Source: a virus
Taxonomy: Duplodnaviria > Heunggongvirae > Uroviricota > Caudoviricetes
DNA length: 64,000 nt
Virus record (IMG/VR): IMGVR_UViG_2721755728_000011
Reading direction: 5' to 3' (one strand)
Shown here piece by piece: positions 2,037 to 24,765 of this stretch. Within the stretch, counting starts at the first letter, position 1. Every line of letters starts with the position of its first letter. The notes under the pieces were generated by a model, which saw only the letters and a program-made list of their open reading frames with translations, was not told the DNA's origin and did not search any database. The position numbers and the translations under genes were made by a program.

Positions 2037-2209
2037 AAATCCTGGTATTTGTAATGACTGGCTCTTATCTCAACGCAGCCCCTTACCGCGCGCAAGATAC
2101 TCAATATCAAGCATCAGCAATGAGATGTTTAATCTGGATTCACTCCAGAAGTGATCACCATCCTGTCTACAGAGCCAGATGTGAAGGATGATGAGTAAAA
2201 TTATCGCTA

Positions 2210-3171: not shown

Positions 3172-3386
3172 TATTCACCTCTCGCAGCCTTGCGCTTATC
3201 TTCTTTAATCTTGAAATAAAGGTTTGTCAGGTACGTCAGCAGGCCAAATACCAGGCTACCCAGCACACCTATTGCTGCCCACTGTGAGGGCGTGACTTTA
3301 TCGAGCAGCTGTAAAAACCAGTAACCGGCACTACCTGCTGAGGTGCCATAGGCGACACCCGTTGTTAACTTATCCATGGATTTCAT
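3171..3386 (-). CDS. Class II holin (S21 pinholin family)
   Basis: 71 aa from MKSMDK dual-start motif; two TM segments; C-terminal [13 protein letters not shown]; track ORF extends upstream via an alternative start. Confidence 0.85.
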
Positions 3387-3453
3387 AACCCCACCTCGCA
3401 GATGCGGGTGCTGTGTAATGGAAATAAAAAGGCCACCTGACGTGGCCACCAAA

Positions 3454-4506
3454 TTATTTCCCCACCAGCTCGTTTATCTCTTTCACTGTCTGGTTAAACC
3501 GCTCTGACTCAAGCTCAACACCTAAGGCCCGACGCCCCAGCGCCATTGCTGCTTTTATTGTGGAACCGGATCCCATAAAAAAATCAGCAACCAGATCACC
3601 AGGTCGACTACTGGCATTGATTATTTGCCTGAGCATATCCGCCGGTTTCTCACACGGATGTTTACCCGGGTAGAACTGAACGGGTTTATGCATCCAGACA
3701 TCGGTATAAGGCACGGAGACTGATACGGAGAAATAGCGCCGGAGAGATTTAAACTCATCCAGCAATTCAGAATATTTGCGATTCAGTGAATCATAAGATG
3801 CCACCAGCTGGTGGTGTGGTTGTTCCAGTTGTTGTTCCTGAAACTTCTCTGCCGCTATACGGGAAAACAGTGCCTGTAACTTCCGATAGTCAGCCTCATT
3901 CGGCAACTGCCACTGACTGGCACCAAACCAGTGGGAAACCATATTTTTCTTACCTGTGGCTTCGGCAATTTGTTTTGCCGTTATACCCAGTTCGGCACGA
4001 GCATCCCTGAAATACGAAATCAGCGGTGCCATTATGTGCTGTTTGAGTTCCCTTTCTTTTGCCGCATAGCCGTCACTTTTGCCGCGATATGGCCCCTGGT
4101 AATGTTCAGCAAACAGAACGCGCTCTGTGGCTGGAAAATATGCACGCAGACTTTCTTTATTACACCCATTCCAACGTCCGGACGGCTTCGCCCAGATGAT
4201 ATGGTTAAGCACGTTGAAACGTTCACGCATCATGATCTCAATATCAGATGCCAGGCGATGCCCACAGAACAGGTAAAGGCTTCCGGCAGGTTTTAACACC
4301 CGCCAGAACTGGGCCAGACAGTGGTCCAGCCACTTAAGGTAATCTTCGTCCCCTTTCCACTGATTGTCCCAGCCGTTGGGTTTCACCTTGAAGTACGGCG
4401 GATCGGTAACAATCAGGTCAATGGAATCATCAGGCAGGGACTGAATAAAATGCAGGCAATCAGCGTTGATTAAATCAACACTGTTTATTTTTACAGTATT
4501 TTTCAT
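3454..4506 (-). CDS. Orphan DNA methyltransferase (N6-adenine/N4-cytosine, beta-class)
   Basis: 350 aa with catalytic DPPY motif (VTDPPYF) N-terminal and AdoMet-binding FxGxG (FFMGSGST) C-terminal; no adjacent restriction gene. Confidence 0.8.
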
Positions 4507-4656
4507 GGATCAGTAAGCGTAACTCTGGTAGGCTCACTCTGCTTTTGCGCTAAAGCAGTGGGCCGTGGTTCGCTTGTGACCAGTAAGCATGAGCGAATGG
4601 CTGGCAGGTGCTACCAACACCCACCAGCCGCCCATTTTCACAGCAGGAAACCGCCA

Positions 4657-4884
4657 TTACTGGCAGCGTCTGAATTTATTCCCGTACCCGCCGTTATCCT
4701 TCGCCAGACCCGCCAGAACTAACTGAGTCAGTATTAACTGGCACCGGGCTTCGCTTACTCCGGTAGTTCTCGTCATCATGCGTGGCGTTACCCACTTGTC
4801 AGCAGGTAAGAAATGAAGGACTGCGGCGGCGGTTTCTGTCATATCTTGCTGTTTTAGCATGTCTTTTTCCCTTCTGGTTAACAT
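4657..4884 (-). CDS. Hypothetical small protein (75 aa)
   Basis: ORF between methyltransferase and lipoprotein moron; weak HTH-like segment; coding status uncertain. Confidence 0.3.
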   Translation of the reverse strand: MLTRREKDMLKQQDMTETAAAVLHFLPADKWVTPRMMTRTTGVSEARCQLILTQLVLAGLAKDNGGYGNKFRRCQ

Positions 4885-4981
4885 GACATACCAATAACTC
4901 TTGTCTAAAAAGCCAGCAAGATAAAAAGTCAGTATTCACGACCACCAGCGTGTTTACTGTACTGCACCAAGTTTACGGGTA

Positions 4982-5006
4982 CAAAAAACCCGCTCAGTGG
5001 CGGGTT
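4982..5006 (-). terminator. Intrinsic terminator downstream of lipoprotein moron
   Basis: Hairpin cccgc-tcagtg-gcggg followed by T-run on minus strand; near-identical copy of the hairpin at 5658..5688. Confidence 0.6.
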
Positions 5007-5083
5007 GCTATCACAGCTATATATTTACTTATTATGCCGTTACTAACATTTATCTTCGACATATAATCGAAAACAAGGTTTGC

Positions 5084-5500
5084 TTAAAACTCTGCTTTCA
5101 TTTTATCCGGGAATTTTTTATTTGCAGCATAATAACTACCAAGTACATAAGCGTTCATTTGCTGCTCTACATCAACCCGACATGCCGCACTAGAACAAGC
5201 TCCACTGATAAGCCCAAAAGAACTCCCTTTAGCAGAGAGATCAGCTTTGATTTCCTCTACAGTGTTTTTCCCCATAGCAACTACACACCCTGTCACAATA
5301 TATCTAGCTTTCACATCATCCATGCTAAGGATAGTAGTTTTCGCAATTTTGCTGTATCCATCATTTTTATAAACATCCATGGCAAACGCACGGCAATCTG
5401 TATAATACGGACTTGCTTTAACTTGCGAATACTCAGGTAATTTCATACCTGCACAACCAACTAAACAAAAACCTATCGCTGCTATTAATACCTTTTTCAT
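5084..5500 (-). CDS. Putative lipoprotein (AT-rich moron downstream of Q)
   Basis: Start at MKKVLIAAIGFCLVGCAG with lipobox LVGC; AT-rich codon usage; flanked by duplicated terminator hairpins. Confidence 0.6.
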   Translation of the reverse strand: MKKVLIAAIGFCLVGCAGMKLPEYSQVKASPYYTDCRAFAMDVYKNDGYSKIAKTTILSMDDVKARYIVTGCVVAMGKNTVEEIKADLSAKGSSFGLISGACSSAACRVDVEQQMNAYVLGSYYAANKKFPDKMKAEF

Positions 5501-5657
5501 TACAGTCATAACCTAGAAGCATCATTGAAACTAATTTATTAAATAACCATCGAGTTTCTGGAATACAGACGTTAACCATCTCTCCAAAATCTAAAAGATA
5601 ATAAGAAAAAATGTTTAACGCACCAATCCATTTCATAGTTTCATGAGACATCAGGCA

Positions 5658-5688
5658 CAAAAAAACCCGCTCAGCGGCGGGTTTTTGA
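5658..5688 (-). terminator. tR'-like intrinsic terminator about 100 bp downstream of Q (bidirectional hairpin)
   Basis: Hairpin cccgc-tcagcg-gcggg flanked by A-run and T-run; position matches lambda tR' relative to Q. Confidence 0.55.
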
Positions 5689-5789
5689 CATTTACCAACG
5701 GTAGACATACAAGGCCCATCGTTGAGAAAATCTTATCCATATTTTTTGAAAAATGCAAGTATCACGTCGACATCTTCGGCGAAAATTAT

Positions 5790-6584
5790 CTATCTTGTCA
5801 CTTTTCTCAATTGCGATTCAGCATACGCTTCTTCCTGCCAGCACTTTGTAACCAGTTTATTAATAACGTCTGCATATCCTTTGTACCACTGATAATCCGT
5901 CAGGTCCGGTACCAGTTTCTGGACATGATGCCGCGCCAGTGTGGTTGGTAAACGGCTAAACCGGTTGCCATTGCAACGCCCACAAATCTTATAAACAGGC
6001 ACACCATGAAGCCGGGTTCTTTTTTCATCCAGGACAATACCTTTACCCTTACACCCTCTGCACGCTGTGCTGACTTCTCCCTTACCATGGCAATGCTGAC
6101 ATAGTTCCTTCACCCACTCTTCCTTGATAACAGATTCCCCGCTTCTGGAGTGTTTCACCACTTCGCGCAATACATTATGAAATCCAGTACCAGCACAATG
6201 CTCACAGCGAGCCTTACTTGCCGCAGACCTGGAATAATCAGCAAAGGCAAAATTCACAAGGTAAGGGATGATCTGTAACCGGGTTTCTTCACTCAATTTG
6301 TTCAATGTCGGGTTATCCAGTGCCATCGCGTAATTGAGCAGACCTTCAATCGCAAATTGAGGATCCTGAACACCAACTTTTGCCAGGAATAAGGCAAACC
6401 CAAGCGGTGCTTTCGACTGCACCATCCCCTGCGCAGCCATCACATCCGTAATCGTTAAACCACCTGAGCCTGTCGCCGGTGCGTCATCGCTCAATTTTGG
6501 AGATTTTGGGGAGTAATATTTTGGTAAGGCTTCAAGGTTCATGCTCGTTCTCCACTTACGCCAGTACGCCAATTGCCAGCGCAC
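5790..6584 (-). CDS. quuQ: Late antiterminator Q, QuuQ type (lambda Q family, long form)
   Basis: Cys-rich motifs CEHCAGTG / CGRCNGN align with lambda Q zinc-finger region; probable true start at MNLEAL (6542). Confidence 0.8.
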   Translation of the reverse strand: MRWQLAYWRKWRTSMNLEALPKYYSPKSPKLSDDAPATGSGGLTITDVMAAQGMVQSKAPLGFALFLAKVGVQDPQFAIEGLLNYAMALDNPTLNKLSEETRLQIIPYLVNFAFADYSRSAASKARCEHCAGTGFHNVLREVVKHSRSGESVIKEEWVKELCQHCHGKGEVSTACRGCKGKGIVLDEKRTRLHGVPVYKICGRCNGNRFSRLPTTLARHHVQKLVPDLTDYQWYKGYADVINKLVTKCWQEEAYAESQLRKVTR

Positions 6585-6888
6585 GATCGATAAAACGAAA
6601 TATCAGCTCCAGCTGGGAGCCATACTTCTCTTCAAATGCCACGGTATCCGCATGCAGCTCGTCGTGATGCTTTCTGCACAAAGGCAACACAAAGAGGTCA
6701 TGCGCTTTTGTACCCATTCCACCCTGACCGTGGCCTATCAGGTGGTGGGGATCATCAGCAGGCTTTCCACAACATGCACACGGCTGTGTCTTAACCCAGC
6801 GCGTGTACTTTTCATTAACCCAGCGGCGACGTTTTGGGCGTAACATAAAAGACTCCGGCGACTCCGGATCCACTTTCAGCGCCAGCAC
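6556..6888 (-). pseudogene. 3' portion of ydfU/DUF968-like gene with HNH-like motif, 5'-truncated at inverted junction
   Basis: 110-aa ORF with CACCGK...HHLIGH...CRKHH motif; ends at Q start as ydfU does in Qin; mirror copy on plus strand at 6975..7355. Confidence 0.45.
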
Positions 6889-6974
6889 CTTTTTCGCTTT
6901 ATCCTGGATAATGCTGGTGGCAGGAACCGAAGGAACAAGGTCACTCTCCCGGGTGTACCCGGGAAAGTGACCTT

Positions 6975-7355
6975 GTGCCTTCGGTTCCTGCCACCAGCAT
7001 CATCCAGGATAAGGCGAAAAAGGTGCTGGCGCTGAAAGTGGATCCGGAGTCGCCGGAGTCTTTTATGTTACGCCCAAAACGTCGCCGCTGGGTTAATGAA
7101 AAGTACACGCGCTGGGTTAAGACACAGCCGTGTGCATGTTGTGGAAAGCCAGCTGATGATCCGCATCATCTGATAGGCCATGGTCAGGGTGGAATGGGTA
7201 CAAAAGCGCATGACCTTTTTGTGCTGCCTTTGTGCAGAAAACACCACGACGAACTGCATGCGGATACCGTGGCATTTGAAGAGAAGTATGGCTCCCAGCT
7301 GGAGCTGATATTTCGTTTTATCGATCGCGCACTGGCGATTGGTGTGCTGGCCTGA
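6975..7355 (+). pseudogene. 3' portion of ydfU/DUF968-like gene (mirror copy), 5'-truncated
   Basis: Protein identical over its shared length to the minus-strand copy at 6556..6888; no plausible native N-terminus. Confidence 0.45.
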
Positions 7356-7372
7356 TTTTGTGGAGAAAGTTA

Positions 7373-7756
7373 ATGCGTGATATTCAGATGGTTCTTGAAC
7401 GTTGGGGAGCGTGGGCGGCTAATAATCATGAAGATGTGACCTGGTCGTCCATTGCCGCCGGTTTTAAGGGATTAATTCCTTCAAAAGTAAAATCTCGCCC
7501 GCAATGTTGTGACGATGACGCGATGATCATTTGCGGGTGCATGGCCCGTCTGAAAAAGAACAACAGCGATTTGCACGATTTATTAGTAGATTATTATGTA
7601 GTCGGTATGACATTCATGTCACTGGCAGGTAAGCATTGCTGCTCTGATGGTTATATCGGGAAAAGGTTACAGAAGGCTGAGGGCATAATTGAAGGGATGT
7701 TAATGGCATTAGATATCCGGTTAGAGATGGATATCGTTGTTAATAACTCTAATTAA
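7373..7756 (+). CDS. quuD: Late antiterminator Q, phage 82 / DLP12 QuuD type
   Basis: 127 aa from [24 protein letters not shown], matching remembered DLP12 QuuD; track ORF starts at upstream TTG. Confidence 0.85.
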
Positions 7757-7945
7757 TATGCCAATTGTTTACTGAAAGTTATTAAAAATGGGGCGTTGCA
7801 ACGCCCCCAAAAATAAAGGGTAATATATAACAGAAGGTTTATATAGTTAGAAGCAAGGTTGTGCTCCTAAAGGAAGTGGCTTGAGGGAGCCACTTATATG
7901 TTGGGGAGGCAACGCCTCCCGCAACATATCTTTTTCGTAATCAGA

Positions 7946-9043
7946 TTAGAACTGGTAAACCAGACCTACAGCAACGATGTCATCAGTGCTTACACCGAGT
8001 GCTTTAGTGAAGTCATTTTTGTCAAGCAGGTTGATTTTGTAATCAACGAAAGTAGACATATTTTTGTTGAAGTAATAGGTTGCACCTACATCAACATATT
8101 TGACTAAGTCCTGATCGCCCCATACTCCAAGATCCTTACCTTTAGATTGCAGGTAAGCAACGGACGGACGCAGACCGAAATCGAACTGATATTGTGCAAC
8201 AGCTTCGAAGTTTTGAGCTTTATTAGCAACGAAGTGATCAGCAAATACAGTCATATTCTGGGTTTCAGAATAGGTAGTGGCCAGGTAAATGTTGTTAGCG
8301 TCATATTTCAGACCTGCGGCCCAAACTTCTGCATTTTTACCGGAAGCAAATACTTCAGGAAGAACTTTCCCTGCATTAACTTGAGTGTCGGTACGATCAG
8401 ATTTCGCATAAGTTGCACCGATACCGAATCCTTCGTATTCATAGGTAGCAGAGAAACCGAAGCCATCACCGTTACCTTCGGTGTAGTTATCGAAATCGCT
8501 ACGATCGTTTTTGCCTTGGTACTGAGCAGCAAAGTTCAGACCATCAACCAGACCAAAGAAGTCGTTGTTACGATAGGTTGCAACACCAGTGGTGCGACCA
8601 GTCATGAACACATCTGTTTGGGTCCAGGTATCGCCACCGAATTCTGGCAGAACGTCAGTCCACGCACCGATGTCGTATGCTACACCGTAGTTACGGCCGT
8701 AATCGATTGAGCCGTAGTCACCGAATTTCAGGCCTGCAAATGCAAGACGGGTTTTGTCTTTGGAGGAACCTTGAGATTCAGCGCGGTTGCCTTTGAATTC
8801 ATATTCCCACTGACCGAAACCAGTCAGCTGATCGTTGATTTGGGTTTCGCCTTTGAAGCCCAGACGAACATAAGTAGTATCACCATCATCTGCATCGTTA
8901 GAGGAAAAGTAGTGCTTGGCATTAACTTTCCCGTACAGATCCAGCTTGTTACTGTCTTTATTATAAATTTCAGCTGCCTGAGCAGACATCGCCATCAGTA
9001 CTGATGCAGCTACAGCAGAAATTGCCACTGTTAATTTTTTCAT
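7946..9043 (-). CDS. nmpC: Outer-membrane porin, NmpC/OmpD family (intact)
   Basis: 365 aa with signal peptide [23 protein letters not shown] and C-terminal aromatic residue (..VYQF); DLP12 position between Q and holin. Confidence 0.85.
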
Positions 9044-9631
9044 CGTGAGCCCTTTTTTTTGAACTATTATTAAAAAATGATGTCACTGCGCGATAAATAT
9101 TCATCTAATCAATGTGATTATTTCAAGATGTAAGTTTTAGTTTCTCATTTAATTTGTGAAGTAGATCTCTATTTTTATCTGAACTTTTTCTATCGAAACC
9201 TATTTATGGCTCTTATTTGAACAAAAATAAATCTATTAGCTAATTTATATTAATGGCTGTTATTTATGGTGGTTCTATAATTCGTCTGTTTAATTTAAAC
9301 CGGCTAAAAATAACACTGGAAATTATTTATTGGTTATTTGTTGAGGTTTTCTTATGTATTTGTGGTGATGTTTTGAACACTCGGTAGCATTCTCATAAAT
9401 ATCATTCAGTGGTTTACGTACGTAAAAAATTGGTTATGCTGTTAAGAGTGGTTACTTCGTCACACAGCTTAAACCCGCCGTCGAGCTGGTTTTTCCATTT
9501 TTTGAGTCTCGATATTAGCTGATAACTCAATACCTGAGTTATTCACTGACTCGGAGTCAGTTACGTTTCTGCTTTTTTGCGATACGTTGTATTCCCTCAA
9601 TTTACACCCGCTTTGTCTGCGAGGTGGGGTT

Positions 9632-9847
9632 ATGAAATTCATGGATAAGTTAACAACTGGAGTCGCCTATGGCACCTCAGCAGGTAGTGCCGGTTACTGG
9701 TTTTTACAGCTGCTCGATAAAGTCACTCCCTCACAGTGGGCAGCAATAGGTGTGCTGGGTAGCCTGGTATTTGGCCTGCTGACGTACCTGACAAACCTTT
9801 ATTTCAAGATTAAAGAAGATAAGCGCAAGGCTGCGAGAGGTGAATAA
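9632..9847 (+). CDS. essD: Class II holin (S21 family)
   Basis: 71 aa from MKFMDK dual-start; SD gaggtgg upstream; two TM segments. Confidence 0.85.
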
Positions 9848-10344
9848 TGCCTCCATCATTACGAAAAGCCGTTGCTGCTGCTATTGGTGGCGGAGCAATT
9901 GCTATAGCATCAGTGTTAATCACTGGCCCAAGTGGTAACGATGGTCTGGAAGGTGTCAGCTACATACCATACAAAGATATTGTTGGTGTATGGACTGTAT
10001 GTCACGGACACACCGGAAAAGACATCATGCTCGGTAAAACGTATACCAAAGCAGAATGCAAAGCACTCTTGAATAAAGACCTTGCCACTGTCGCCAGACA
10101 AATTAACCCGTATATCAAAGTTGATATACCGGAAACAACGCGCGGCGCTCTTTACTCATTCGTTTACAATGTGGGTGCTGGCAATTTTAGAACATCGACG
10201 CTTCTTCGCAAAATAAACCAGGGCGATATCAAAGGCGCATGTGATCAGCTGCGTCGCTGGACATACGCTGGCGGTAAGCAATGGAAAGGCCTGATGACTC
10301 GTCGTGAGATTGAGCGTGAAGTCTGTTTGTGGGGGCAACAGTGA
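9847..10344 (+). CDS. rrrD: SAR endolysin (R21-type lysozyme)
   Basis: 165 aa, near-identical to the segment A and C endolysins; SAR N-terminus. Confidence 0.85.
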
Positions 10345-10802
10345 GCAGAGTAACCGCGATTATATCCGCTCTGATTATCTGCATCATCGTCAGCCTGTCA
10401 TGGGCGGTCAATCATTACCGTGATAACGCAATCGCCTACAAAGCCCAGCGCGACAAAAATGCCAGAGAACTGAAGCTAGCGAACGCGGCAATTACTGACA
10501 TGCAGATGCGTCAGCGTGATGTTGCTGCGCTCGATGCAAAATACACGAAGGAGTTAGCTGATGCGAAAGCTGAAAATGATGCTCTGCGTGATGATGTTGC
10601 CGCTGGTCGTCGTCGGTTGCACATCAAAGCAGTCTGTCAGTCAGTGCGTGAAGCCACCACGGCCTCCGGCGTGGATAATGCAGCCTCCCCCCGACTGGCA
10701 GACACCGCTGAACGGGATTATTTCACCCTCAGAGAGAGGCTGATCACTATGCAAAAACAACTGGAAGGAACCCAGAAGTATATTAATGAGCAGTGCAGAT
10801 AG
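10341..10802 (+). CDS. rzpD: Rz i-spanin
   Basis: GTG start giving [11 protein letters not shown]...; lambda/DLP12 Rz-like throughout. Confidence 0.8.
10561..10743 (+). CDS. rzoD: Rz1 o-spanin lipoprotein (embedded)
   Basis: Lipobox VVGC followed by Pro-rich tail; embedded in Rz in another frame. Confidence 0.75.
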
Positions 10803-10833
10803 AGCTGACCATATCGATGGGCAACTCATGCAA

Positions 10834-11127
10834 TTATTTTGAGCAATACACACGCGCTTCCAGCGGAGTATAAATGCCTAAAGTAATAAAACCGAGCAAT
10901 CCATTTACGAATGTTTGCTGGGTTTCTGTTTTAACAACATTTTCTGCGCCGCCACAAATTTTGGCTGCATCGACAGTTTTCTTCTGCCCAATTCCAGAAA
11001 CGAAGAAATGATGGGTGATGGTTTCCTTTGGTGCTACTGCTGTCTGTTTGTTTTGAACAGTAAACGTCTGTTGAGCACATCCTGTAATAAGCAGGGCCAG
11101 CGCAGTAGCGAGTAGCATTTTTTTCAT
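10834..11127 (-). CDS. borD: Bor serum-resistance lipoprotein
   Basis: 97 aa MKKMLLATALALLITGCAQQ..., matches remembered lambda Bor / DLP12 BorD. Confidence 0.9.
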   Translation of the reverse strand: MKKMLLATALALLITGCAQQTFTVQNKQTAVAPKETITHHFFVSGIGQKKTVDAAKICGGAENVVKTETQQTFVNGLLGFITLGIYTPLEARVYCSK

Positions 11128-11417
11128 GGTGTTATTCCCGATGCTTTTTGAAGTTCGCAGAATCGTATGTGTAGAAAATTAAACAAACCCTAAACAATGA
11201 GTTGAAATTTCATATTGTTAATATTTATTAATGTATGTCAGGTGCGATGAATCGTCATTGTATTCCCGGATTAACTATGTCCACAGCCCTGACGGGGAAC
11301 TTCTCTGCGGGAGTGTCCGGGAATAATTAAAAACGATGCACACAGGGTTTAGCGCGTACACGTATTGCATTATGCCAACGCCCCGGTGCTGACACGGAAG
11401 AAACCGGACGTTATGAT

Positions 11418-11951
11418 TTAGCGTGGAAAGATTTGTGTAGTGTTCTGAATGCTCTCAGTAAATAGTAATGAATTATCAAAGGTATAGTAATATCTTTTAT
11501 GTTCGTGGATATTTGTAACCCATCGGAAAACTCCTGCTTTAGCAAGATTTTCCCTGTATTGCTGAAATGTGATTTCTCTTGATTTCAACCTATCAAAGGA
11601 CGTTTCTATAAGATGCGTATTTCTTGAGAATTTAACATTTACAACCTTTTTAAGTCCTTTTATTAACACAGTGTTATCGTTTTCTAACACAATGTGAATA
11701 TTATCTGTGGCTAGATAGTAAATATAATGTGAGACATTGTGACGTTTTAGTTCAGAATAAAACAATTCACAGTTTAAATCTTTTCGCACTTGATCGAATA
11801 TTTCTTTAAAAATGGCAACCTGAGCCATTGGTAAAACCTTCCATGTGATACGAGGGCGCGTAGTTTGCATTATCGTTTTTATCGTTTCAATCTGGTCTGA
11901 CCTCTTTGTGTTTTGTTGATGATTTATGTCAAATATTAGGAATGTTTTCAA
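11418..11951 (-). CDS. ybcV: YbcV-like protein (lambda orf78 region homologue)
   Basis: 177-aa AT-rich ORF in the DLP12 ybcV position between bor and ybcW. Confidence 0.6.
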
Positions 11952-12113
11952 TTAATAGTATTGGTTGTGTAACAAAGTGCGGTCCTGCTGGCATTCTGGA
12001 GGGAAATACAACCGACAGATGTATGTAAGGCCAACGTGCTCAAATCTTCATACAGAAAGATTTGAAGTAATATTTTAACCGCTAGATGAAGAGCAAGCGC
12101 ATGGAGCGACAAA

Positions 12114-12320
12114 ATGAATAAAGAACAATCTGCTGATGATCCCTCCGTGGATCTGATTCGTGTAAAAAATATGCTTAATAGCACCATTTCTATGAGTTAC
12201 CCTGATGTTGTAATTGCATGTATAGAACATAAGGTGTCTCTGGAAGCATTCAGGGCAATTGAGGCAGCGTTGGTGAAGCACGATAATAATATGAAGGATT
12301 ATTCCCTGGTGGTTGACTGA
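12114..12320 (+). CDS. ybcW: YbcW-like small protein (68 aa)
   Basis: Size and position match DLP12 ybcW / lambda orf79. Confidence 0.6.
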
Positions 12321-12484
12321 TCACCATAACTGCTAATCATTCAAACTACTTAACCTGTGACAGAGCCAACACGCAGTCTGTCACTGTCAGGAAAGTGGTA
12401 AAACTGCAACTCAATTACTGCAATGCCCTCGTAATTAAGTGAATTTACAATATCGTCCTGTTCGGAGGGAAGAACGCGGGATGT

Positions 12485-12679
12485 TCATTCTTCATCACTT
12501 TTAATTGATGTATATGCTATCTTTTCTGACGTTAGCCTCCGACGGCAGGCTTCAATGACCCAGGCTGAGAAATTCCCGGACCCTTTTTGATCAAGAGCGA
12601 TGTTAATTTGTTCAATCATTTGGTTAGGAAAGCGGATGTTGCGGGTTGTTGTTCTGCGGGTTCTGTTCTTCGTTGACAT
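12485..12679 (-). CDS. ylcI: YlcI-like DUF3950 protein (64 aa)
   Basis: Divergent from nu1 next to cos as in DLP12; second near-identical copy at 36981..37175. Confidence 0.6.
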   Translation of the reverse strand: MSTKNRTRRTTTRNIRFPNQMIEQINIALDQKGSGNFSAWVIEACRRRLTSEKIAYTSIKSDEE

Positions 12680-12878
12680 GAGGTTGCCCCGTATTCAGTG
12701 TCGCTGATTTGTATTGTCTGAAGTTGTTTTTACGTTAAGTTGATGCGGATCAATTAATACGATACCTGCGTCATAATTGATTATTTGACGTGGTTTGATG
12801 GCGTAGATGCACGTTGTGACATGTAGATGATAATTATTATCATTTTGCGGGTCCTTTCCGGCGATCCGACAGGTTACG

Positions 12879-12890
12879 GGGCGGCGACCT
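12879..12890 (+). other. cos: cosN cohesive-end site (gggcggcgacct)
   Basis: Sequence ...gacaggttacg|gggcggcgacct|cgcgggttttcgctatttatgaaaatttt matches the joined lambda right and left ends from memory. Confidence 0.85.
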
Positions 12891-13067
12891 CGCGGGTTTT
12901 CGCTATTTATGAAAATTTTCCGGTTTAAGGCGTTTCCGTTCTTCTTCGTCGTAACTTAATGTTTTTATTTAAAATACCCCCTGAAAAGAAAGGAAACGAC
13001 AGGTGCTGAAAACGAACTTTTGGGCCTTTGTCGTTTCCTTTCTCTGTTTTTGGCCGTGGAATGAACA

Positions 13068-13587
13068 ATGGAAGTCAACAAAAAGCAGCTGGCTGACATT
13101 TTCGGTGCGAGTATCCGTACCATTCAGAACTGGCAGGAACAGGGAATGCCCGTTCTGCGAGGCGGTGGCAAGGGTAATGAGGTGCTTTATGACTCTGCCG
13201 CCGTCATAAAATGGTATGCCGAAAGGGATGCTGAAATTGAGAACGAAAAGCTGCGCCGGGAGGTTGAAGAACTGCGGCAGGCCAGCGAGGCAGATCTCCA
13301 GCCAGGAACTATTGAGTACGAACGCCATCGACTTACGCGTGCGCAGGCCGACGCACAGGAACTGAAGAATGCCAGAGACTCCGCTGAAGTGGTGGAAACC
13401 GCATTCTGTACTTTCGTGTTGTCGCGGATCGCAGGTGAAATTGCCAGTATTCTCGACGGGCTCCCCCTGTCGGTGCAGCGGCGTTTTCCGGAACTGGAAA
13501 ACCGACATGTTGATTTCCTGAAACGGGATATCATCAAAGCCATGAACAAAGCAGCCGCGCTGGATGAACTGATACCGGGGTTGCTGA

Positions 13588-13613
<26 letters not shown>
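13068..13613 (+). CDS. nu1: Terminase small subunit Nu1
   Basis: 181 aa, MEVNKKQLADIFGASIRTIQNWQEQG..., matches remembered lambda Nu1. Confidence 0.95.
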
Positions 13614-17294
<3,681 letters not shown>

Positions 17295-17314
<20 letters not shown>

Positions 17315-18614
17315 TCTCCCGCATATTGCCAGCATGGCCTTTAATGAGCCGCTGATGCTTGAACCCGCCTATGCGCGGGTTTTCTTTTGTGCGCTTGCAG
17401 GCCAGCTTGGGATCAGCCGCCTGACGGATGCGGTGTCCGGCGACAGCCTGACTGCCCAGGAGGCACTCGCGACGCTGGCATTATCCGGTGATGATGACGG
17501 ACCACGACAGGCCCGCAGTTATCAGGTCATGAACGGCATCGCCGTGCTGCCGGTGTCCGGCACGCTGGTCAGCCGGACGCGGGCGCTGCAGCCGTACTCG
17601 GGGATGACCGGTTACAACGGCATTATCGCCCGTCTGCAACAGGCTGCCAGCGATCCGATGGTGGACGGCATTCTGCTCGATATGGACACGCCCGGCGGGA
17701 TGGTGGCGGGGGCATTTGACTGCGCTGACATCATCGCCCGTGTGCGTGACATAAAACCGGTATGGGCGCTTGCCAACGACATGAACTGCAGTGCAGGTCA
17801 GTTGCTTGCCAGTGCCGCCTCCCGGCGTCTGGTCACGCAGACCGCCCGGACAGGCTCCATCGGCGTCATGATGGCTCACAGTAATTACGGTGCTGCGCTG
17901 GAGAAACAGGGTGTGGAAATCACGCTGATTTACAGCGGCAGCCATAAGGTGGATGGCAACCCCTACAGCCATCTTCCGGATGACGTCCGGGAGACACTGC
18001 AGTCCCGGATGGACGCAACCCGCCGGATGTTTGCGCAGAAGGTGTCGGCATATACCGGCCTGTCCGTGCAGGCTGTGCTGGATACCGAGGCTGCAGTGTA
18101 CAGCGGTCAGGAGGCCATTGATGCCGGACTGGCTGATGAACTTGTTAACAGCACCGATGCGATCACCGTCATGCGTGATGCACTGGATGCACGTAAATCC
18201 CGTCTCTCAGGAGGGCGAATGACCAAAGAGACTCAATCAACAACTGTTTCAGCCACTGCTTCGCAGGCTGACGTTACTGACGTGGGGCCAGCGACGGAGG
18301 GCGAGAACGCCAGCGCGGCGCAGCCGGACGTGAACGCGCAGATCACCGCAGCGGTTGCGGCAGAAAACAGCCGCATTATGGGGATCCTCAACTGTGAGGA
18401 GGCTCACGGACGCGAAGAACAGGCACGCGTGCTGGCAGAAACCCCCGGTATGACCGTGAAAACGGCCCGCCGCATTCTGGCCGCAGCACCACAGAGTGCA
18501 CAGGCGCGCAGTGACACTGCGCTGGATCGTCTGATGCAGGGGGCACCGGCACCGCTGGCTGCAGGTAACCCGGCATCTGATGCCGTTAACGATTTGCTGA
18601 ACACACCAGTGTAA
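17295..18614 (+). CDS. C: Head maturation protease / scaffold C (includes nested Nu3)
   Basis: GTG start giving (M)TAELRNLPHIASMAFNEP...; track ORF extends upstream in frame. Confidence 0.9.
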
Positions 18615-18623
18615 GGGATGTTT

Positions 18624-18956
18624 ATGACGAGCAAAGAAACCTTTACCCATTACCAGCCGCAGGGCAACAGTGACCCGGCTCATACCGCAACCGCGCCCGG
18701 CGGATTGAGTGCGAAAGCGCCTGCAATGACCCCGCTGATGCTGGACACCTCCAGCCGTAAGCTGGTTGCGTGGGATGGCACCACCGACGGTGCTGCCGTT
18801 GGCATTCTTGCGGTTGCTGCTGACCAGACCAGCACCACGCTGACGTTCTACAAGTCCGGCACGTTCCGTTATGAGGATGTGCTCTGGCCGGAGGCTGCCA
18901 GCGACGAGACGAAAAAACGGACCGCGTTTGCCGGAACGGCAATCAGCATCGTTTAA
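18624..18956 (+). CDS. D: Head decoration protein D
   Basis: 110 aa [27 protein letters not shown]..., lambda gpD. Confidence 0.95.
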
Positions 18957-18976
18957 CTTTACCCTTCATCACTAAA

Positions 18977-18998
18977 GGCCGCCTGTGCGGCTTTTTTT
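18977..18998 (+). terminator. Intrinsic terminator hairpin between D and E
   Basis: ggccgc-ctgt-gcggc stem followed by 7 T. Confidence 0.55.
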
Positions 18999-19011
18999 AC
19001 GGGATTTTTTT

Positions 19012-20037
19012 ATGTCGATGTACACAACCGCCCAACTGCTGGCGGCAAATGAGCAGAAATTTAAGTTTGATCCGCTGTTTCTGCGTCTCTTTTTCCGTGA
19101 GAGCTATCCCTTCACCACGGAGAAAGTCTATCTCTCACAAATTCCGGGACTGGTAAACATGGCGCTGTACGTTTCGCCGATTGTTTCCGGTGAGGTTATC
19201 CGTTCCCGTGGCGGCTCCACCTCTGAATTTACGCCGGGATATGTCAAGCCGAAGCATGAAGTGAATCCGCAGATGACCCTGCGTCGCCTGCCGGATGAAG
19301 ATCCGCAGAATCTGGCGGACCCGGCTTACCGCCGCCGTCGCATCATCATGCAGAACATGCGTGACGAAGAGCTGGCCATTGCTCAGGTCGAAGAGATGCA
19401 GGCAGTTTCTGCCGTGCTTAAGGGCAAATACACCATGACCGGTGAAGCCTTCGATCCGGTTGAGGTGGATATGGGCCGCAGTGAGGAGAATAACATCACG
19501 CAGTCCGGCGGCACGGAGTGGAGCAAGCGTGACAAGTCCACGTATGACCCGACCGACGATATCGAAGCCTACGCGCTGAACGCCAGCGGTGTGGTGAATA
19601 TCATCGTGTTCGATCCGAAAGGCTGGGCGCTGTTCCGTTCCTTCAAAGCCGTCAAGGAGAAGCTGGATACCCGTCGTGGCTCTAATTCCGAGCTGGAGAC
19701 AGCGGTGAAAGACCTAGGTAAAGCGGTGTCCTATAAGGGGATGTATGGCGATGTGGCCATCGTCGTGTATTCCGGACAGTACGTGGAAAACGGCGTCAAA
19801 AAGAACTTCCTGCCGGACAACACGATGGTGCTGGGGAACACTCAGGCACGCGGTCTGCGCACCTATGGCTGCATTCAGGATGCGGACGCACAGCGCGAAG
19901 GCATTAACGCCTCTGCCCGTTACCCGAAAAACTGGGTGACCACCGGCGATCCGGCGCGTGAGTTCACCATGATTCAGTCAGCACCGCTGATGCTGCTGGC
20001 TGACCCTGATGAGTTCGTGTCCGTACAACTGGCGTAA
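19012..20037 (+). CDS. E: Major capsid protein E
   Basis: 341 aa MSMYTTAQLLAANEQKFKFDPLFLRLFFRESYPF..., lambda gpE. Confidence 0.95.
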   Translation: MSMYTTAQLLAANEQKFKFDPLFLRLFFRESYPFTTEKVYLSQIPGLVNMALYVSPIVSGEVIRSRGGSTSEFTPGYVKPKHEVNPQMTLRRLPDEDPQNLADPAYRRRRIIMQNMRDEELAIAQVEEMQAVSAVLKGKYTMTGEAFDPVEVDMGRSEENNITQSGGTEWSKRDKSTYDPTDDIEAYALNASGVVNIIVFDPKGWALFRSFKAVKEKLDTRRGSNSELETAVKDLGKAVSYKGMYGDVAIVVYSGQYVENGVKKNFLPDNTMVLGNTQARGLRTYGCIQDADAQREGINASARYPKNWVTTGDPAREFTMIQSAPLMLLADPDEFVSVQLA

Positions 20038-20041
20038 TCAT

Positions 20042-20063
20042 GGCCCTTCGGGGCCATTGTTTC
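20042..20063 (+). terminator. Hairpin terminator after E (ggccc-ttcg-gggcc then T-rich)
   Basis: UUCG tetraloop hairpin immediately after the E stop codon. Confidence 0.5.
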
Positions 20064-20078
20064 TCTGTGGAGGAGTCC

Positions 20079-20477
20079 ATGACGAAAGATGAACTGATTG
20101 CCCGTCTCCGCTCGCTGGGTGAACAACTGAACCGTGATGTCAGCCTGACGGGGACGAAAGAAGAACTGGCGCTCCGTGTGGCAGAGCTGGAAGAGGAGCT
20201 TGATGACACGGATGAAACTGCCGGTCAGGACACCCCTCTCAGCCGGGAAAATGTGCTGACCGGACATGAAAATGAGGTGGGATCAGCGCAGCCGGATACC
20301 GTGATTCTGGATACGTCTGAACTGGTCACGGTCGTGGCACTGGTGAAGCTGCATACTGATGCACTTCACGCCACGCGGGATGAACCTGTGGCATTTGTGC
20401 TGCCGGGAACGGCGTTTCGTGTCTCTGCCGGTGTGGCAGCCGAAATGACAGAGCGCGGCCTGGCCAGAATGCAATAA
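20079..20477 (+). CDS. Fi: DNA-packaging / head assembly protein Fi
   Basis: 132 aa MTKDELIARLRSLGEQLNRDV..., lambda Fi. Confidence 0.9.
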   Translation: MTKDELIARLRSLGEQLNRDVSLTGTKEELALRVAELEEELDDTDETAGQDTPLSRENVLTGHENEVGSAQPDTVILDTSELVTVVALVKLHTDALHATRDEPVAFVLPGTAFRVSAGVAAEMTERGLARMQ

Positions 20478-20488
20478 CGGGAGGCGCT

Positions 20489-20842
20489 GTGGCTGATTTC
20501 GATAACCTGTTCGATGCTGCCATTGCCCGCGCCGATGAAACGATACGCGGGTACATGGGAACGTCAGCCACCATTACATCCGGTGAGCAGTCAGGTGCGG
20601 TGATACGTGGTGTTTTTGATGACCCTGAAAATATCAGCTATGCCGGACAGGGCGTGCGCGTTGAAGGCTCCAGCCCGTCCCTGTTTGTCCGGACTGATGA
20701 GGTGCGGCAGCTGCGGCGTGGAGACACGCTGACCATCGGTGAGGAAAATTTCTGGGTAGATCGGGTTTCGCCGGATGATGGCGGAAGTTGTCATCTCTGG
20801 CTTGGACGGGGCGTACCGCCTGCCGTTAACCGTCGCCGCTGA
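20489..20842 (+). CDS. FII: Head-tail connector protein FII
   Basis: 117 aa, GTG start, (M)ADFDNLFDAAIARADETIRGYMG..., lambda FII. Confidence 0.9.
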   Translation: MADFDNLFDAAIARADETIRGYMGTSATITSGEQSGAVIRGVFDDPENISYAGQGVRVEGSSPSLFVRTDEVRQLRRGDTLTIGEENFWVDRVSPDDGGSCHLWLGRGVPPAVNRRR

Positions 20843-20853
20843 AAGGGGGATGT

Positions 20854-21432
20854 ATGGCCATAAAAGGTCTTGAGCAGGCCGTTGAAAACCTCAGCCGTAT
20901 CAGCAAAACGGCGGTGCCTGGTGCCGCCGCAATGGCCATTAACCGCGTTGCTTCATCCGCGATATCGCAGTCGGCGTCACAGGTTGCCCGTGAGACAAAG
21001 GTACGCCGGAAACTGGTAAAGGAAAGGGCCAGGCTGAAAAGGGCCACGGTCAAAAATCCGCAGGCCAGAATCAAAGTTAACCGGGGGGATTTGCCCGTAA
21101 TCAAGCTGGGTAATGCGCGGGTTGTCCTTTCGCGCCGCAGGCGTCGTAAAAAGGGGCAGCGTTCATCCCTGAAAGGTGGCGGCAGCGTGCTTGTGGTGGG
21201 TAACCGTCGTATTCCCGGCGCGTTTATTCAGCAACTGAAAAATGGCCGGTGGCATGTCATGCAGCGTGTGGCCGGGAAAAACCGTTACCCCATTGATGTG
21301 GTGAAAATCCCGATGGCGGTGCCGCTGACCACGGCGTTTAAACAAAATATTGAGCGGATACGGCGTGAACGTCTTCCGAAAGAGCTGGGCTATGCGCTGC
21401 AGCATCAACTGAGGATGGTAATAAAGCGATGA
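20854..21432 (+). CDS. Z: Tail completion protein Z
   Basis: 192 aa MAIKGLEQAVENLSRISKTAVPG..., lambda Z. Confidence 0.9.
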   Translation: MAIKGLEQAVENLSRISKTAVPGAAAMAINRVASSAISQSASQVARETKVRRKLVKERARLKRATVKNPQARIKVNRGDLPVIKLGNARVVLSRRRRRKKGQRSSLKGGGSVLVVGNRRIPGAFIQQLKNGRWHVMQRVAGKNRYPIDVVKIPMAVPLTTAFKQNIERIRRERLPKELGYALQHQLRMVIKR

Positions 21433-21824
21433 AACATACTGAACTCCGTGCAGCCGTACTGGATGCACTGGAGAAGCATGACACCGGGGCGACGTTTTTT
21501 GATGGTCGCCCCGCTGTTTTTGATGAGGCGGATTTTCCGGCAGTTGCCGTTTATCTCACCGGCGCTGAATACACGGGCGAAGAGCTGGACAGCGATACCT
21601 GGCAGGCGGAGCTGCATATCGAAGTTTTCCTGCCTGCTCAGGTGCCGGATTCAGAGCTGGATGCGTGGATGGAGTCCCGGATTTATCCGGTGATGAGCGA
21701 TATCCCGGCACTGTCAGATTTGATCACCAGTATGGTGGCCAGTGGCTATGACTACCGGCGCGACGATGATGCGGGCCTGTGGAGTTCAGCCGATCTGACT
21801 TATGTCATTACCTATGAAATGTGA
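21429..21824 (+). CDS. U: Tail terminator protein U
   Basis: 131 aa, lambda U. Confidence 0.9.
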
Positions 21825-21831
21825 GGACGCT

Positions 21832-22572
21832 ATGCCTGTACCAAATCCTACAATGCCGGTGAAAGGTGCCGGGACCACCCTGTGGGTTTATAAGGGGAGC
21901 GGTGACCCTTATGCGAATCCGCTTTCAGACGTTGACTGGTCGCGTCTGGCAAAAGTTAAAGACCTGACGCCCGGCGAACTGACCGCTGAGTCCTATGACG
22001 ACAGCTATCTCGATGATGAAGATGCAGACTGGACTGCGACCGGGCAGGGGCAGAAATCTGCCGGAGATACCAGCTTCACGCTGGCGTGGATGCCCGGAGA
22101 GCAGGGGCAGCAGGCGCTGCTGGCGTGGTTTAATGAAGGCGATACCCGTGCCTATAAAATCCGCTTCCCGAACGGCACGGTCGATGTGTTCCGTGGCTGG
22201 GTCAGCAGTATCGGTAAGGCGGTGACGGCGAAGGAAGTGATCACCCGCACGGTGAAAGTCACCAATGTGGGACGTCCGTCGATGGCAGAAGATCGCAGCA
22301 CGGTAACAGCGGCAACCGGCATGACCGTGACGCCTTCCAGCACCTCGGTGGTGAAAGGGCAGAGCACCACGCTGACCGTGGCCTTCCAGCCGGAGGGCGT
22401 AACCGACAAGAGCTTTCGTGCGGTGTCTGCGGATAAAACAAAAGCCACCGTGTCGGTCAGTGGTATGACCATCACCGTGAACGGCGTTGCTGCAGGCAAG
22501 GTCAACATTCCGGTTGTATCCGGTAATGGTGAGTTTGCTGCGGTTGCAGAAATTACCGTCACCGCCAGTTAA
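21832..22572 (+). CDS. V: Major tail tube protein V
   Basis: 246 aa [22 protein letters not shown]..., lambda V with C-terminal Ig-like domain. Confidence 0.95.
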
Positions 22573-22587
22573 TCCGGAGAGTCAGCG

Positions 22588-23010
22588 ATGTTCCTGAAAA
22601 CCGAATCATTTGAACATAACGGTGTGACCGTCACGCTTTCTGAACTGTCAGCCCTGCAGCGCATTGAGCATCTCGCCCTGATGAAACGGCAGGCAGAACA
22701 GGCGGAGTCAGACAGCAACCGGAAGTTTACTGTGGAAGACGCCATCAGAACCGGCGCGTTTCTGGTGGCGATGTCCCTGTGGCATAACCATCCGCAGAAG
22801 ACGCAGATGCCGTCCATGAATGAAGCCGTTAAACAGATTGAGCAGGAAGTGCTTACCACCTGGCCCACGGAGGCAATTTCTCATGCTGAAAACGTGGTGT
22901 ACCGGCTGTCTGGTATGTATGAGTTTGTGGTGAATAATGCCCCTGAACAGACAGAGGACGCCGGGCCCGCAGAGCCTGTTTCTGCGGGAAAGTGTTCGAC
23001 GGTGAGCTGA
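22588..23010 (+). CDS. G: Tail assembly chaperone G
   Basis: 140 aa MFLKTESFEHNGVTVTLSELSALQRIEHLALMKR..., lambda G. Confidence 0.9.
   Translation: MFLKTESFEHNGVTVTLSELSALQRIEHLALMKRQAEQAESDSNRKFTVEDAIRTGAFLVAMSLWHNHPQKTQMPSMNEAVKQIEQEVLTTWPTEAISHAENVVYRLSGMYEFVVNNAPEQTEDAGPAEPVSAGKCSTVS
22986..22992 (+). promoter_or_regulatory. Programmed -1 ribosomal frameshift slippery heptamer GGGAAAG (G to GT)
   Basis: Heptamer at the G/T overlap, as in lambda. Confidence 0.8.
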
Positions 23011-23426
23011 GTTTTGCCCTGAAACTGGCGCGTGAGATGGGGCGACCCGACTGGCGTGCCATGCTTGCCGGGATGTCATCCACGGAGTATGCCGACTGGC
23101 ACCGCTTTTACAGTACCCATTATTTTCATGATGTTCTGCTGGATATGCACTTTTCCGGGCTGACGTACACCGTGCTCAGCCTGTTTTTCAGCGATCCGGA
23201 TATGCATCCGCTGGATTTCAGTCTGCTGAACCGGCGCGAGGCTGACGAAGAGCCTGAAGATGATGTGCTGATGCAGAAAGCGGCAGGGCTTGCCGGAGGT
23301 GTCCGCTTTGGCCCGGACGGGAATGAAGTTATCCCCGCTTCCCCGGATGTGGCGGACATGACGGAGGATGACGTAATGCTGATGACAGTATCAGAAGGGA
23401 TCGCAGGAGGAGTCCGGTATGGCTGA
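22992..23426 (+). CDS. T: T portion of tail assembly chaperone GT (frameshift product)
   Basis: 144-aa -1 frame ORF overlapping G end; lambda T-like. Confidence 0.85.
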   Translation: MFDGELSFALKLAREMGRPDWRAMLAGMSSTEYADWHRFYSTHYFHDVLLDMHFSGLTYTVLSLFFSDPDMHPLDFSLLNRREADEEPEDDVLMQKAAGLAGGVRFGPDGNEVIPASPDVADMTEDDVMLMTVSEGIAGGVRYG

Positions 23427-24765
23427 ACCGGTAGGCGATCTGGTCGTTGATTTGAGTCTGGATGCGGCCAGATTTGACGAGCAGATGGCCAGAGTCAGGC
23501 GTCATTTTTCCGGTACGGAAAGTGATGCGAAAAAAACAGCGGCAGTCGTTGAACAGTCGCTGAGCCGACAGGCGCTGGCTGCACAGAAAGCGGGGATTTC
23601 CGTCGGGCAGTATAAAGCCGCCATGCGTATGCTGCCTGCACAGTTCACCGACGTGGCCACGCAGCTTGCAGGCGGGCAAAGTCCGTGGCTGATCCTGCTG
23701 CAACAGGGGGGGCAGGTGAAGGACTCCTTCGGCGGGATGATCCCCATGTTCAGGGGGCTTGCCGGTGCGATCACCCTGCCGATGGTGGGGGCCACCTCGC
23801 TGGCGGTGGCGACCGGTGCGCTGGCGTATGCCTGGTATCAGGGCAACTCAACCCTGTCCGATTTCAACAAAACGCTGGTCCTTTCCGGCAATCAGGCGGG
23901 ACTGACGGCAGATCGTATGCTGGTCCTGTCCAGAGCCGGGCAGGCGGCAGGGCTGACGTTTAACCAGACCAGCGAGTCACTCAGCGCACTGGTTAAGGCG
24001 GGGGTAAGCGGTGAGGCTCAGATTGCGTCCATCAGCCAGAGTGTGGCGCGTTTCTCCTCTGCATCCGGCGTGGAGGTGGACAAGGTCGCTGAAGCCTTCG
24101 GGAAGCTGACCACAGACCCGACGTCGGGGCTGACGGCGATGGCACGCCAGTTCCATAACGTGACGACGGAGCAGATTGCGTATGTTGCTCAGTTGCAGCG
24201 TTCCGGCGATGAAGCCGGGGCATTGCAGGCGGCGAACGAGGCCGCAACGAAAGGGTTTGATGACCAGACCCGCCGCCTGAAAGAGAACATGGGCACGCTG
24301 GAGACCTGGGCAGACAGGACTGCGCGGGCATTCAAATCCATGTGGGATGCGGTGCTGGATATCGGTCGTCCTGATACCGCGCAGGAGATGCTGATTAAGG
24401 CAGAGGCTGCGTTTAAGAAAGCAGACGACATCTGGAATCTGCGCAAGGATGATTATTTTGTTAACGATGAAGCGCGGGCGCGTTACTGGGATGATCGTGA
24501 AAAGGCCCGTCTTGCGCTTGAAGCCGCCCGAAAGAAGGCTGAGCAGCAGACTCAACAGGACAAAAATGCGCAGCAGCAGAGCGATACCGAAGCGTCACGG
24601 CTGAAATATACCGAAGAGGCGCAGAAGGCTTACGAACGGCTGCAGACGCCGCTGGAGAAATATACCGCCCGTCAGGAAGAACTGAACAAGGCACTGAAAG
24701 ACGGGAAAATCCTGCAGGCGGATTACAACACGCTGATGGCGGCGGCGAAAAAGGATTATGAAGGG
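23419..24765 (+). pseudogene. H: Tape-measure protein H, 5' portion only (about codons 1..448)
   Basis: Matches remembered lambda H through ...LMAAAKKDYE, then runs into antisense of the other H copy; the 574-aa track ORF is read-through. Confidence 0.85.

Follow-up and report, generated by a model that had tools for sequence, protein, structure and literature searches.

Can the 3' ends of two copies of one prophage gene, joined tip to tip as mirror images, be neighbors in a living genome? The question is raised by a palindrome near the left end of the stretch of caudoviral DNA analyzed here (IMG/VR virus record IMGVR_UViG_2721755728_000011, 64,000 nucleotides, hereafter the window), in which two fragments of a DUF968/ydfU-like nuclease gene meet between two genes for late antiterminators. 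Overall, we believe the palindrome is probably an assembly or graph misjoin rather than a structure of a living genome, and we infer that the join was made in silico. That the two arms are physically adjacent in the organism is doubtful.

Anatomy of the palindrome

A repeat search of the window returned an inverted repeat with arms at 6560-6954 and 6957-7351 (395 nt, 95% complementary), and base-by-base comparison extends these to the arms listed in Table 1, each of 400 nt, with 378 of the 400 positions complementary (94.5%) and 22 mismatched. Together they form a near-perfect palindrome of ~800 bp in which the spacer, filler and microhomology between the arms all amount to zero. Folded as single-stranded DNA, 6541-7372 adopts a single hairpin at -507 kcal/mol, compared with -126 +/- 6 kcal/mol for shuffled sequences (z = -65), confirming that the inverted repeat reported by the first-pass annotation is real and far above chance. 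That annotation described the arms correctly while placing them slightly off at both ends (6541..6948 and 6972..7372), and the stretch that it took for a center, 6949..6971, proves to be arm sequence, with no unpaired center present.

The cccgggtgtacccggg sequence at 6948-6963 likewise belongs to the arms, its sole asymmetric pair being the innermost one, g6955/t6956, in which the t is the base that the right-hand copy natively carries. The mismatches nearest the axis lie 1, 10, 22, 46 and 58 nt out, and are followed by a perfect run of 137 nt. The center itself, cccgggt..acccggg, has perfect local symmetry.

Table 1. Features at and around the two junctions of the window
Feature	Position	Strand	Details
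ydfT/QuuQ-type Q antiterminator (as phage SfV Q); activates the late operon of fragment A	5790..6542	-	PF03589 Antiterm, E=7e-54
Left arm, truncated DUF968/ydfU-like His-Me (HNH) pseudogene	6556..6955	-	gene nt 591-990; PF06147 E=4e-67, PF16784
Longest perfect palindrome run	6761..6897	.	137 nt, exact complement of 7014-7150
Left-arm patch adjoining the axis, third-copy alleles (C3 copy D, 3.80 Mb)	6829..6955	-	127 nt
Symmetry axis, junction J1	6955..6956	.	innermost bases differ between the copies: C vs T, gene nt 591
Right arm, truncated DUF968 pseudogene of DLP12-like prophage B	6956..7355	+	gene nt 591-990; PF06147 E=2e-64
quuD, lambda-Q-type antiterminator, fragment B	7373..7756	+	PF06530 E=1e-53; annotation of identical C3/OkiPb01675 DNA
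nmpC-like porin	7946-9043	-	after quuD; annotation of identical C3/OkiPb01675 DNA
Segment A	1-6955		C3 2956815-2963768, minus; 99.8% identity
Segment B, match to C3	6956-24696		C3 266111-283851, minus; 100% identity
Segment B, DLP12-like prophage, DUF968 nt 591 to tape-measure nt 1345	6956..24763	+	OkiPb01675 583155-600962
B tape-measure 5' part	23419-24763	+	tape-measure nt 1-1345
Junction J2	24763..24764	.	B tape-measure 5' part joined to antisense C tape-measure 5' part
C tape-measure 5' part	24764-26056	-	tape-measure nt 1-1293
Segment C	24764-64000		C3 4583149-4622368, minus; 99.6-99.9% identity
Integrase (the only one)	62927-64000		56 kb from J1

Origin of the two arms

DUF968/YdfU and YbcO make up group 7 of the His-Me finger nucleases (PMC5714182), and DUF968 members with an HNH zinc-finger C-terminal extension have been described (PMC4118853). 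Both arms belong to this family, scoring 217-226 bits against PF06147 (cutoff 27.8), and both contain the His-Me/HNH zinc-finger region, with 29.5 and 29.4 bits against PF16784 (HNHc_6; cutoff 26.6) and the motif CACCGKPADDPHHLIGH...PLCRKHHDELH in both translations, a CxxC ... HH ... CxxHH pattern. The initial reading of the arms as DUF968 3' ends with an HNH-like motif is thus borne out. Neither arm is the complete gene of 329 aa: codons 1-197 are missing from both, and the profile alignments start at positions 40 and 47 of 171. Both DUF968 copies are gene fragments, and they are cut, as first noticed, at the same point, nt 591 of 990, the left-arm offset being 590 within the 990-nt intact genes of Escherichia coli C3 (NZ_CP010119.1) and M8. 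At this point the intact genes read cccgggtg/acagacgg, and the window reads cccgggtg/tacccggg. A 126-aa open reading frame of the right arm is on record only in ordinary loci with a frameshift-split DUF968 gene, and is not diagnostic.

The right arm is identical at 400 of 400 positions to an intact DUF968 gene (copy B) upstream of quuD in C3 and OkiPb01675, and 221 genomes have an intact DUF968 gene upstream of quuD. The left arm is mosaic in its alleles, which are those of C3 copy A (2.956 Mb) in the outer part and those of copy D in the patch next to the axis: 6 of the 11 differences between window positions 1-6955 and copy A fall within 6829-6946, and 6800-6955 is 100% identical to C3 3801690-3801845, and also to intact genes in many genomes. 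The suggestion that relatives be searched for an intact ydfU has a clear answer, thousands of genomes having an intact gene as the continuation of each half of the palindrome. The 22 mismatches therefore mark two independent alleles, not one copy folded back, and the original description of two diverged copies is upheld by the intact genes that each arm matches. Because all 22 are synonymous, the two 132-codon translations being identical, both arms must have evolved as working genes that were truncated very recently, or only on paper. In themselves the arms are ordinary, the 3' ends of two intact, functional prophage alleles of a His-Me nuclease gene, each followed by its own Q gene.

These results bear directly on the simplest route to a spacer-less palindrome cut at one position, namely fold-back duplication of one DUF968 copy followed by divergence. 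In fold-back or tandem-inversion-duplication events the arms come from one locus and are identical when formed, but the arms in the window are paralogues that lie megabases apart in relatives, and their 22 differences follow extant alleles. The right arm equals an extant intact allele throughout, the left arm is a mosaic of two others, and the flanks differ as well, being unrelated Q genes. We therefore give a single-copy origin almost no credence. An older one-copy palindrome that was later converted was also considered and rejected, since even the innermost base already follows the natural alleles.

Flanking genes and the three segments of the window

The two Q genes belong to unrelated families, the left one to PF03589 (ydfT) on the minus strand and the right one to PF06530 (quuD) on the plus strand, in agreement with the types first assigned to them. 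The left Q is collinear with the C3 gene at 2957228-2957980 (annotated as an antitermination protein; ydfT in relatives), and outward of it lie a methyltransferase gene and lysis genes. On the right, according to the annotation of the identical C3/OkiPb01675 DNA, the lysis genes essD-rrrD-rzpD lie beyond the nmpC-like porin.

Both arrangements have familiar counterparts. The ydfU-ydfT (quuQ) pair of Qin and the orf45-Q pair of Shigella phage SfV show the same order, a DUF968 gene and then a PF03589 Q, and SfV orf45-Q is 99.1% identical to the left half of the palindrome region at 5790-6955. In Qin and SfV, however, the DUF968 gene has its full 990 nt and follows KilA-N and RusA genes, whereas the copy in the window stops at nt 591 and meets its mirror image. 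Similarly, the DLP12-type late region (DUF968-quuD-nmpC-essD-rrrD-rzpD-bor) in OkiPb01675 and in the C3 prophage is 100% identical to the right half and segment B, but its early region, the first 590 nt of its DUF968 gene and everything 3' of tape-measure nt 1345 are missing here. The parts, then, are known modules, the SfV/Qin ydfU-ydfT pair and the DLP12 quuD-nmpC-lysis region.

The window as a whole consists of three segments, A, B and C, each collinear with one prophage of C3, and all three on the C3 minus strand. Segment B in addition matches OkiPb01675 without a gap over 17,808 nt (100.0% identity). In C3, the closest relative, the segments lie at 2.96, 0.28 and 4.6 Mb, and B and C are 557 kb apart in OkiPb01675. 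Both genomes carry separate, complete prophages at the argW-like, DLP12 and torS-torT sites. Relative to C3, J1 would be a same-strand jump of 2.67 Mb and J2 one of 0.99 Mb, and a chromosome that had lost both stretches would not be viable. A simple inversion of segment B was also rejected, as undoing it restores no gene.

The other inverted junction, which the first-pass annotation named as bracketing segment B together with the palindrome, lies in the tape-measure gene, at 24763/24764. Here the two copies share a 2-nt AG overlap with an offset of 68-70 nt. The B and C tape-measure genes are 36-96% alike up to alignment column 1292 and then ~100% identical for 1.2 kb. The C arm of J2 stops exactly at the last C-specific base, and the B arm reaches 70 nt into the common stretch.

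Breakpoints and uniqueness of the joins

Both arms of J1 begin with a base that differs between the copies (C vs T, nt 591). It opens a cluster of five copy differences, and in the intact genes it is preceded by a run of 71 nt in which copies B and D are identical. The window is without the DUF968 5' half, the early genes, the 3' half of the tape-measure gene and the tail genes, and it contains no exact repeat longer than 175 nt. From the positions of the breakpoints and the missing common sequence, both J1 and J2 have the form of joins of unique sequence to unique sequence from which the shared repeat is absent.

Neither join has a counterpart in the collections searched. Of 5426 complete E. 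coli genomes, 4653 match one half of the J1 query, the match ending at 6954-6955, and in none of the 5426 is the center spanned; J2 is likewise spanned in none of them. The J1 junction does not occur among 50,697 phage or 72,556 plasmid records, and the junction strings, exact or degenerate, have no match in IMG/VR, in GTDB genomes (a collection of one genome per species) or in JGI metagenomes. As a positive control, the intact-gene sequence over the same bases is present in >120 IMG/VR contigs. Neither of the two chimeric open reading frames created at J2 occurs in a collection covering 153 billion gene positions.

Assembly misjoin or fold-back rearrangement

The favored explanation is that three lambdoid prophage fragments were joined end to end during assembly of the source sequence. 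Fragment A would comprise late genes, a Q gene and a DUF968 3' end; fragment B would run from a DUF968 3' end through the 5' half of a tape-measure gene; and fragment C would run from the 5' half of a tape-measure gene back to int. The sequence common to the copies would have been omitted, the early region and DUF968 5' half at one join, and the tape-measure 3' half and tail genes at the other. The DUF968 arms would then represent the two branches that part at a single node of an overlap or de Bruijn graph, and a path up one branch and down the other would spell an inverted repeat. Two branches of a single vertex start at one position and differ at their first base, which is the pattern at J1, so the shared start nucleotide and the differing first bases of the arms would both be accounted for. 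The intact gene would, on this explanation, continue past 6955 / 6956 as ACAGACGGCACAACAGG....

Several lines of evidence point to such a misjoin. Known misjoins at repeat boundaries are likewise joins found in one record, with breakpoints where copies diverge or merge and with the common repeats absent; the joins in the window are unique to a single record among all the collections searched, show the branch-point geometry at J1 and J2 alike, and have lost the common repeats. The precision of J1 is telling as well. With both arms starting at nt 591, and with zero spacer and zero microhomology, some process that aligns the two copies is needed, and homologous recombination, which also aligns them, would give a full-length hybrid gene. 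The segments lie megabases apart in C3, and B and C are far apart in OkiPb01675 too. The join has no age: segment B remains 100% identical to an intact prophage over 17.8 kb, and the arm differences are only synonymous, implying that both genes were intact until very recently. The 127-nt switch to the alleles of a third paralogue, immediately beside the axis, resembles a path wandering among repeat copies. Finally, there is the question of viability. A perfect 460-bp palindrome without spacer in the E. coli chromosome kills sbcCD+ cells even if they are proficient in recombination, whereas cells survive when a 20-bp spacer is present (PMC4245961); the J1 palindrome measures 800 bp, has no spacer, and shows its first mismatch beyond the tip 10 nt out.

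At the same time, a misjoin leaves some observations awkwardly placed. No valid walk in a bidirected graph exits a vertex by the side on which it came in, and we can name no assembler that legally makes such a U-turn. The DUF968 5' halves in C3 are 96-99% alike, so nt 591 does not mark where a long exact repeat ends and a contig break there is not forced. The segments are otherwise flawless, as the perfect 17.8 kb of segment B attests; the five central mismatches could soften the sensitivity of the palindrome to SbcCD; and J2, with its 2-nt microhomology and 68-nt offset, resembles a genuine template-switch junction. With k = 71, a de Bruijn graph would match the 71-nt run at J1 as well as the 70 nt retained at J2. 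We regard this value as a post hoc hint, as the C3 copies stand in for those of the source genome, and as an explanation it was set aside, for it leaves unexplained how larger exact repeats (up to 175 nt) inside the segments were resolved.

The main alternative, which we consider unlikely though worthy of attention, is a real junction that arose by a recent illegitimate fold-back, or U-turn, between paralogous prophages. A broken or stalled nascent strand, guided by homology to another prophage, would switch to the displaced strand and copy outwards, and two such switches, J1 in DUF968 and J2 in the tape-measure gene, would in one replication-based event produce a chain of A, 17.8 kb of B, and C. 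J2 carries the classic signature of a template switch in its AG microhomology and 68-70 nt offset, and the C breakpoint falls at a homology boundary, where a D-loop would end. All three segments retain the common strand and the cyclic order that they have in C3, and the consensus is otherwise clean. Fold-back and tandem-inversion-duplication junctions are likewise inverted joins of homologous sequence with little or no spacer, a description that suits J2 and its 2 nt of microhomology, and palindromes drive inverted duplications in E. coli (PMC3315005).

J1 conforms poorly to such an event, with microhomology and offset both zero, the local GTCAC..GTGAC and CCCGGG symmetries predicting other centers, and the 58 nt beside it being the most diverged part of the arm. 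Two rare events 17.8 kb apart are needed, the reciprocal products would be near-perfect palindromes on the kilobase scale or megabases lost or duplicated, and further rearrangements are required for a whole chromosome. Nothing similar was found in any other genome searched, and to our knowledge no paralogue-to-paralogue fold-back has been described in bacteria. In sbcCD+ cells, a palindrome this large and without spacer would be expected to prove lethal or to be deleted quickly (PMC4245961). The chromosomal palindromes engineered by the Leach laboratory are the nearest comparison, being also hairpin-forming repeats of several hundred bp without spacer, but they were constructed in vitro with identical arms, and the perfect 460-bp version is lethal with SbcCD (PMC4245961), whereas J1 has 800 bp and is 94.5% matched. 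That A, B and C are physically joined by one replication-based event with two U-turns, the palindrome being tolerated by a natural sbcCD+ E. coli, strikes us as improbable.

Other mechanisms were considered and rejected. Between two copies of a gene, homologous recombination, single-strand annealing and break-induced replication invariably produce a hybrid gene of full length and never a join of 3' part to 3' part, and in the window 3' part does meet 3' part, with no 5' part present. Moreover, two 3' tails that head for the 5' end of the gene are identical rather than complementary. A template switch primed at CCCGGG predicts ...ctcccggg/aaagtgacc, with one CCCGGG, but the window has two with tgta between them, and hairpin priming at GTCAC-N8-GTGAC predicts a center in the loop, which is not observed. 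Restriction or homing cleavage is not indicated either, as ctgt/cacc and ctgt/tacc form no palindromic site and no motif is common to them and the J2 breakpoints.

A chimera at the level of reads or library, carried into the consensus, would place the artefact before assembly. Among nanopore genomic reads, 1-4% are fold-backs, a share that can rise to 20-30%, and they produce spacer-less inverted joins (PMC12870357). The arms of such reads come from one molecule and are identical, however, whereas those in the window are different alleles, traced to two loci, with different flanking genes, a discrepancy that also weighs against the favored misjoin (PMC12870357). Two ligated molecules would have had to break at the same nucleotide, which calls for a sequence-specific cut, and no palindromic restriction site is present at 590/591. 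A read or library chimera is thus very unlikely.

A functional element, whether a programmed invertible switch or recombinase site at the center or a regulatory hairpin between the Q genes, is suggested by the local symmetry of the center and by the location of the arms between two divergently oriented late-gene activators. We find this extremely hard to credit. The symmetry is that of one gene's coding sequence read twice, with arm differences that are all synonymous; promoter-like sites occur at chance level; and the structure is conserved nowhere among E. coli genomes, phage and plasmid records. The annotation of the homologous DNA to the left and right of J1 includes no gene for an invertase or other recombinase, the sole integrase being that at the far end of the window, and the locus differs from Hin/Gin/Cin/Pin-type switches in its 400-nt coding arms and in having no segment between them.

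Because the structure departs from what recombination, a switch or a fold-back would give, and displays those features of a misjoin that can be tested, we hold with moderate confidence that it is not a real feature.

Implications

If the palindrome is indeed an artefact, the record is unfit for inferring prophage structure, gene content or prophage-mediated inversions, and it contributes two false DUF968 pseudogenes and two chimeric tape-measure open reading frames. If it is real, it represents an undescribed route of prophage-driven chromosome rearrangement, a bacterial counterpart of multi-switch replicative rearrangements in which prophage paralogues can template fold-back joins. Both DUF968 fragments would then be dead, and both late operons would be silent, since between each Q gene and its early promoter would stand the other arm in mirror image. 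A real palindrome would also be a natural test case for the central asymmetry that a long palindrome needs to survive SbcCD, with five central mismatches being enough to tame it. As an artefact, the locus could also supply a signature for screening other assemblies and provirus collections: two alleles joined in inverted orientation at a branch point, without spacer and with the common repeat missing.

Inverted junction within the tape-measure gene

The window carries a second inverted junction, J2 (24763|24764, within 23419-26056), at which the 5' half of the prophage B tape-measure gene meets, in antisense orientation, the 5' half of the tape-measure gene of prophage C, with an overlap of 2 nt (AG) and an offset of 68-70 nt. 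The join creates two chimeric ORFs, one on each strand, both of which are without any match on record in a collection of 153 billion gene positions, and J2 itself is spanned by none of 5426 complete E. coli genomes. The tail region is scrambled in the closest relative, E. coli C3 (RefSeq assembly NZ_CP010119.1), where 258-267 kb (locus L003) reads, in order, the 5' half of the tape-measure gene H, two successive units that each pair a J 3' part with a lom 5' part, and the 3' half of H. There the tape-measure breakpoints, at nt 1278 and 1337, fall within the 70-nt region at the homology boundary that also holds J2, and this shared region is either a hotspot or else the sign of a region that is hard to assemble.

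Left-arm mosaic and extent of the record

Beside J1 (6955|6956), the spacer-less inverted join of two DUF968 3' ends, the left arm is itself a mosaic: at 6829-6955 the alleles of C3 copy A give way to those of C3 copy D, a third DUF968 copy (3.80 Mb), and the switch falls inside a stretch that is identical between copies A and D. The exact mosaic is present in none of the genomes of the collection, the best match to 6300-6955 being 99.2%.

At the opposite end, the last base of the window is the end of the stop codon of the prophage C integrase gene (62927-64000); this end point corresponds to C3 4583149 and adjoins torS. Because the window stops on this stop codon and consists entirely of prophage DNA, we suggest that the source record was trimmed at a gene boundary, in the manner of provirus-extraction software, and is not a piece of chromosome with arbitrary ends.

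Gene content of the prophage fragments

Each prophage fragment has its own lysis cassette, and those of fragments A and B are mirror images around J1, ~6.2 kb apart. The nmpC-like porin gene is intact; the K-12 DLP12 copy of nmpC is broken by an IS element. The methyltransferase gene of fragment A occupies the Q-to-lysis position in which lambdoid phages hold moron, or cargo, genes.

Both IS3-family elements of prophage C are found in C3 as well, and both are missing from the otherwise identical prophage of E. coli OkiPb01675. In these relatives, prophage C has nleG and espJ, both genes for type III effectors, past the tail fibres, adjoining torT; the copy in the window stops short of this region.

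Features of the three prophage fragments and of prophage C in its relatives
Feature	Position	Strand	Remarks
essD-rrrD-type lysis cassette	2430-3402		cassettes 89-95% alike
essD-rrrD-type lysis cassette	9616-10588		
essD-rrrD-type lysis cassette	38451-39281		
DNA methyltransferase gene	3454-4506	-	350 aa; between Q and lysis genes, fragment A
nmpC-like porin gene	7946-9043	-	365 aa; downstream of quuD
Chimeric ORF made by J2	23419-25143	+	574 aa
Chimeric ORF made by J2	24461-26056	-	531 aa
IS3-family element	46895-48205		nin region, prophage C; the two in direct orientation, 94% alike
IS3-family element	49129-50439		
nleG/espJ region, C3 (L005)	4634-4637 kb		outside window
nleG/espJ region, OkiPb01675 (L008)	1193-1196 kb		outside window
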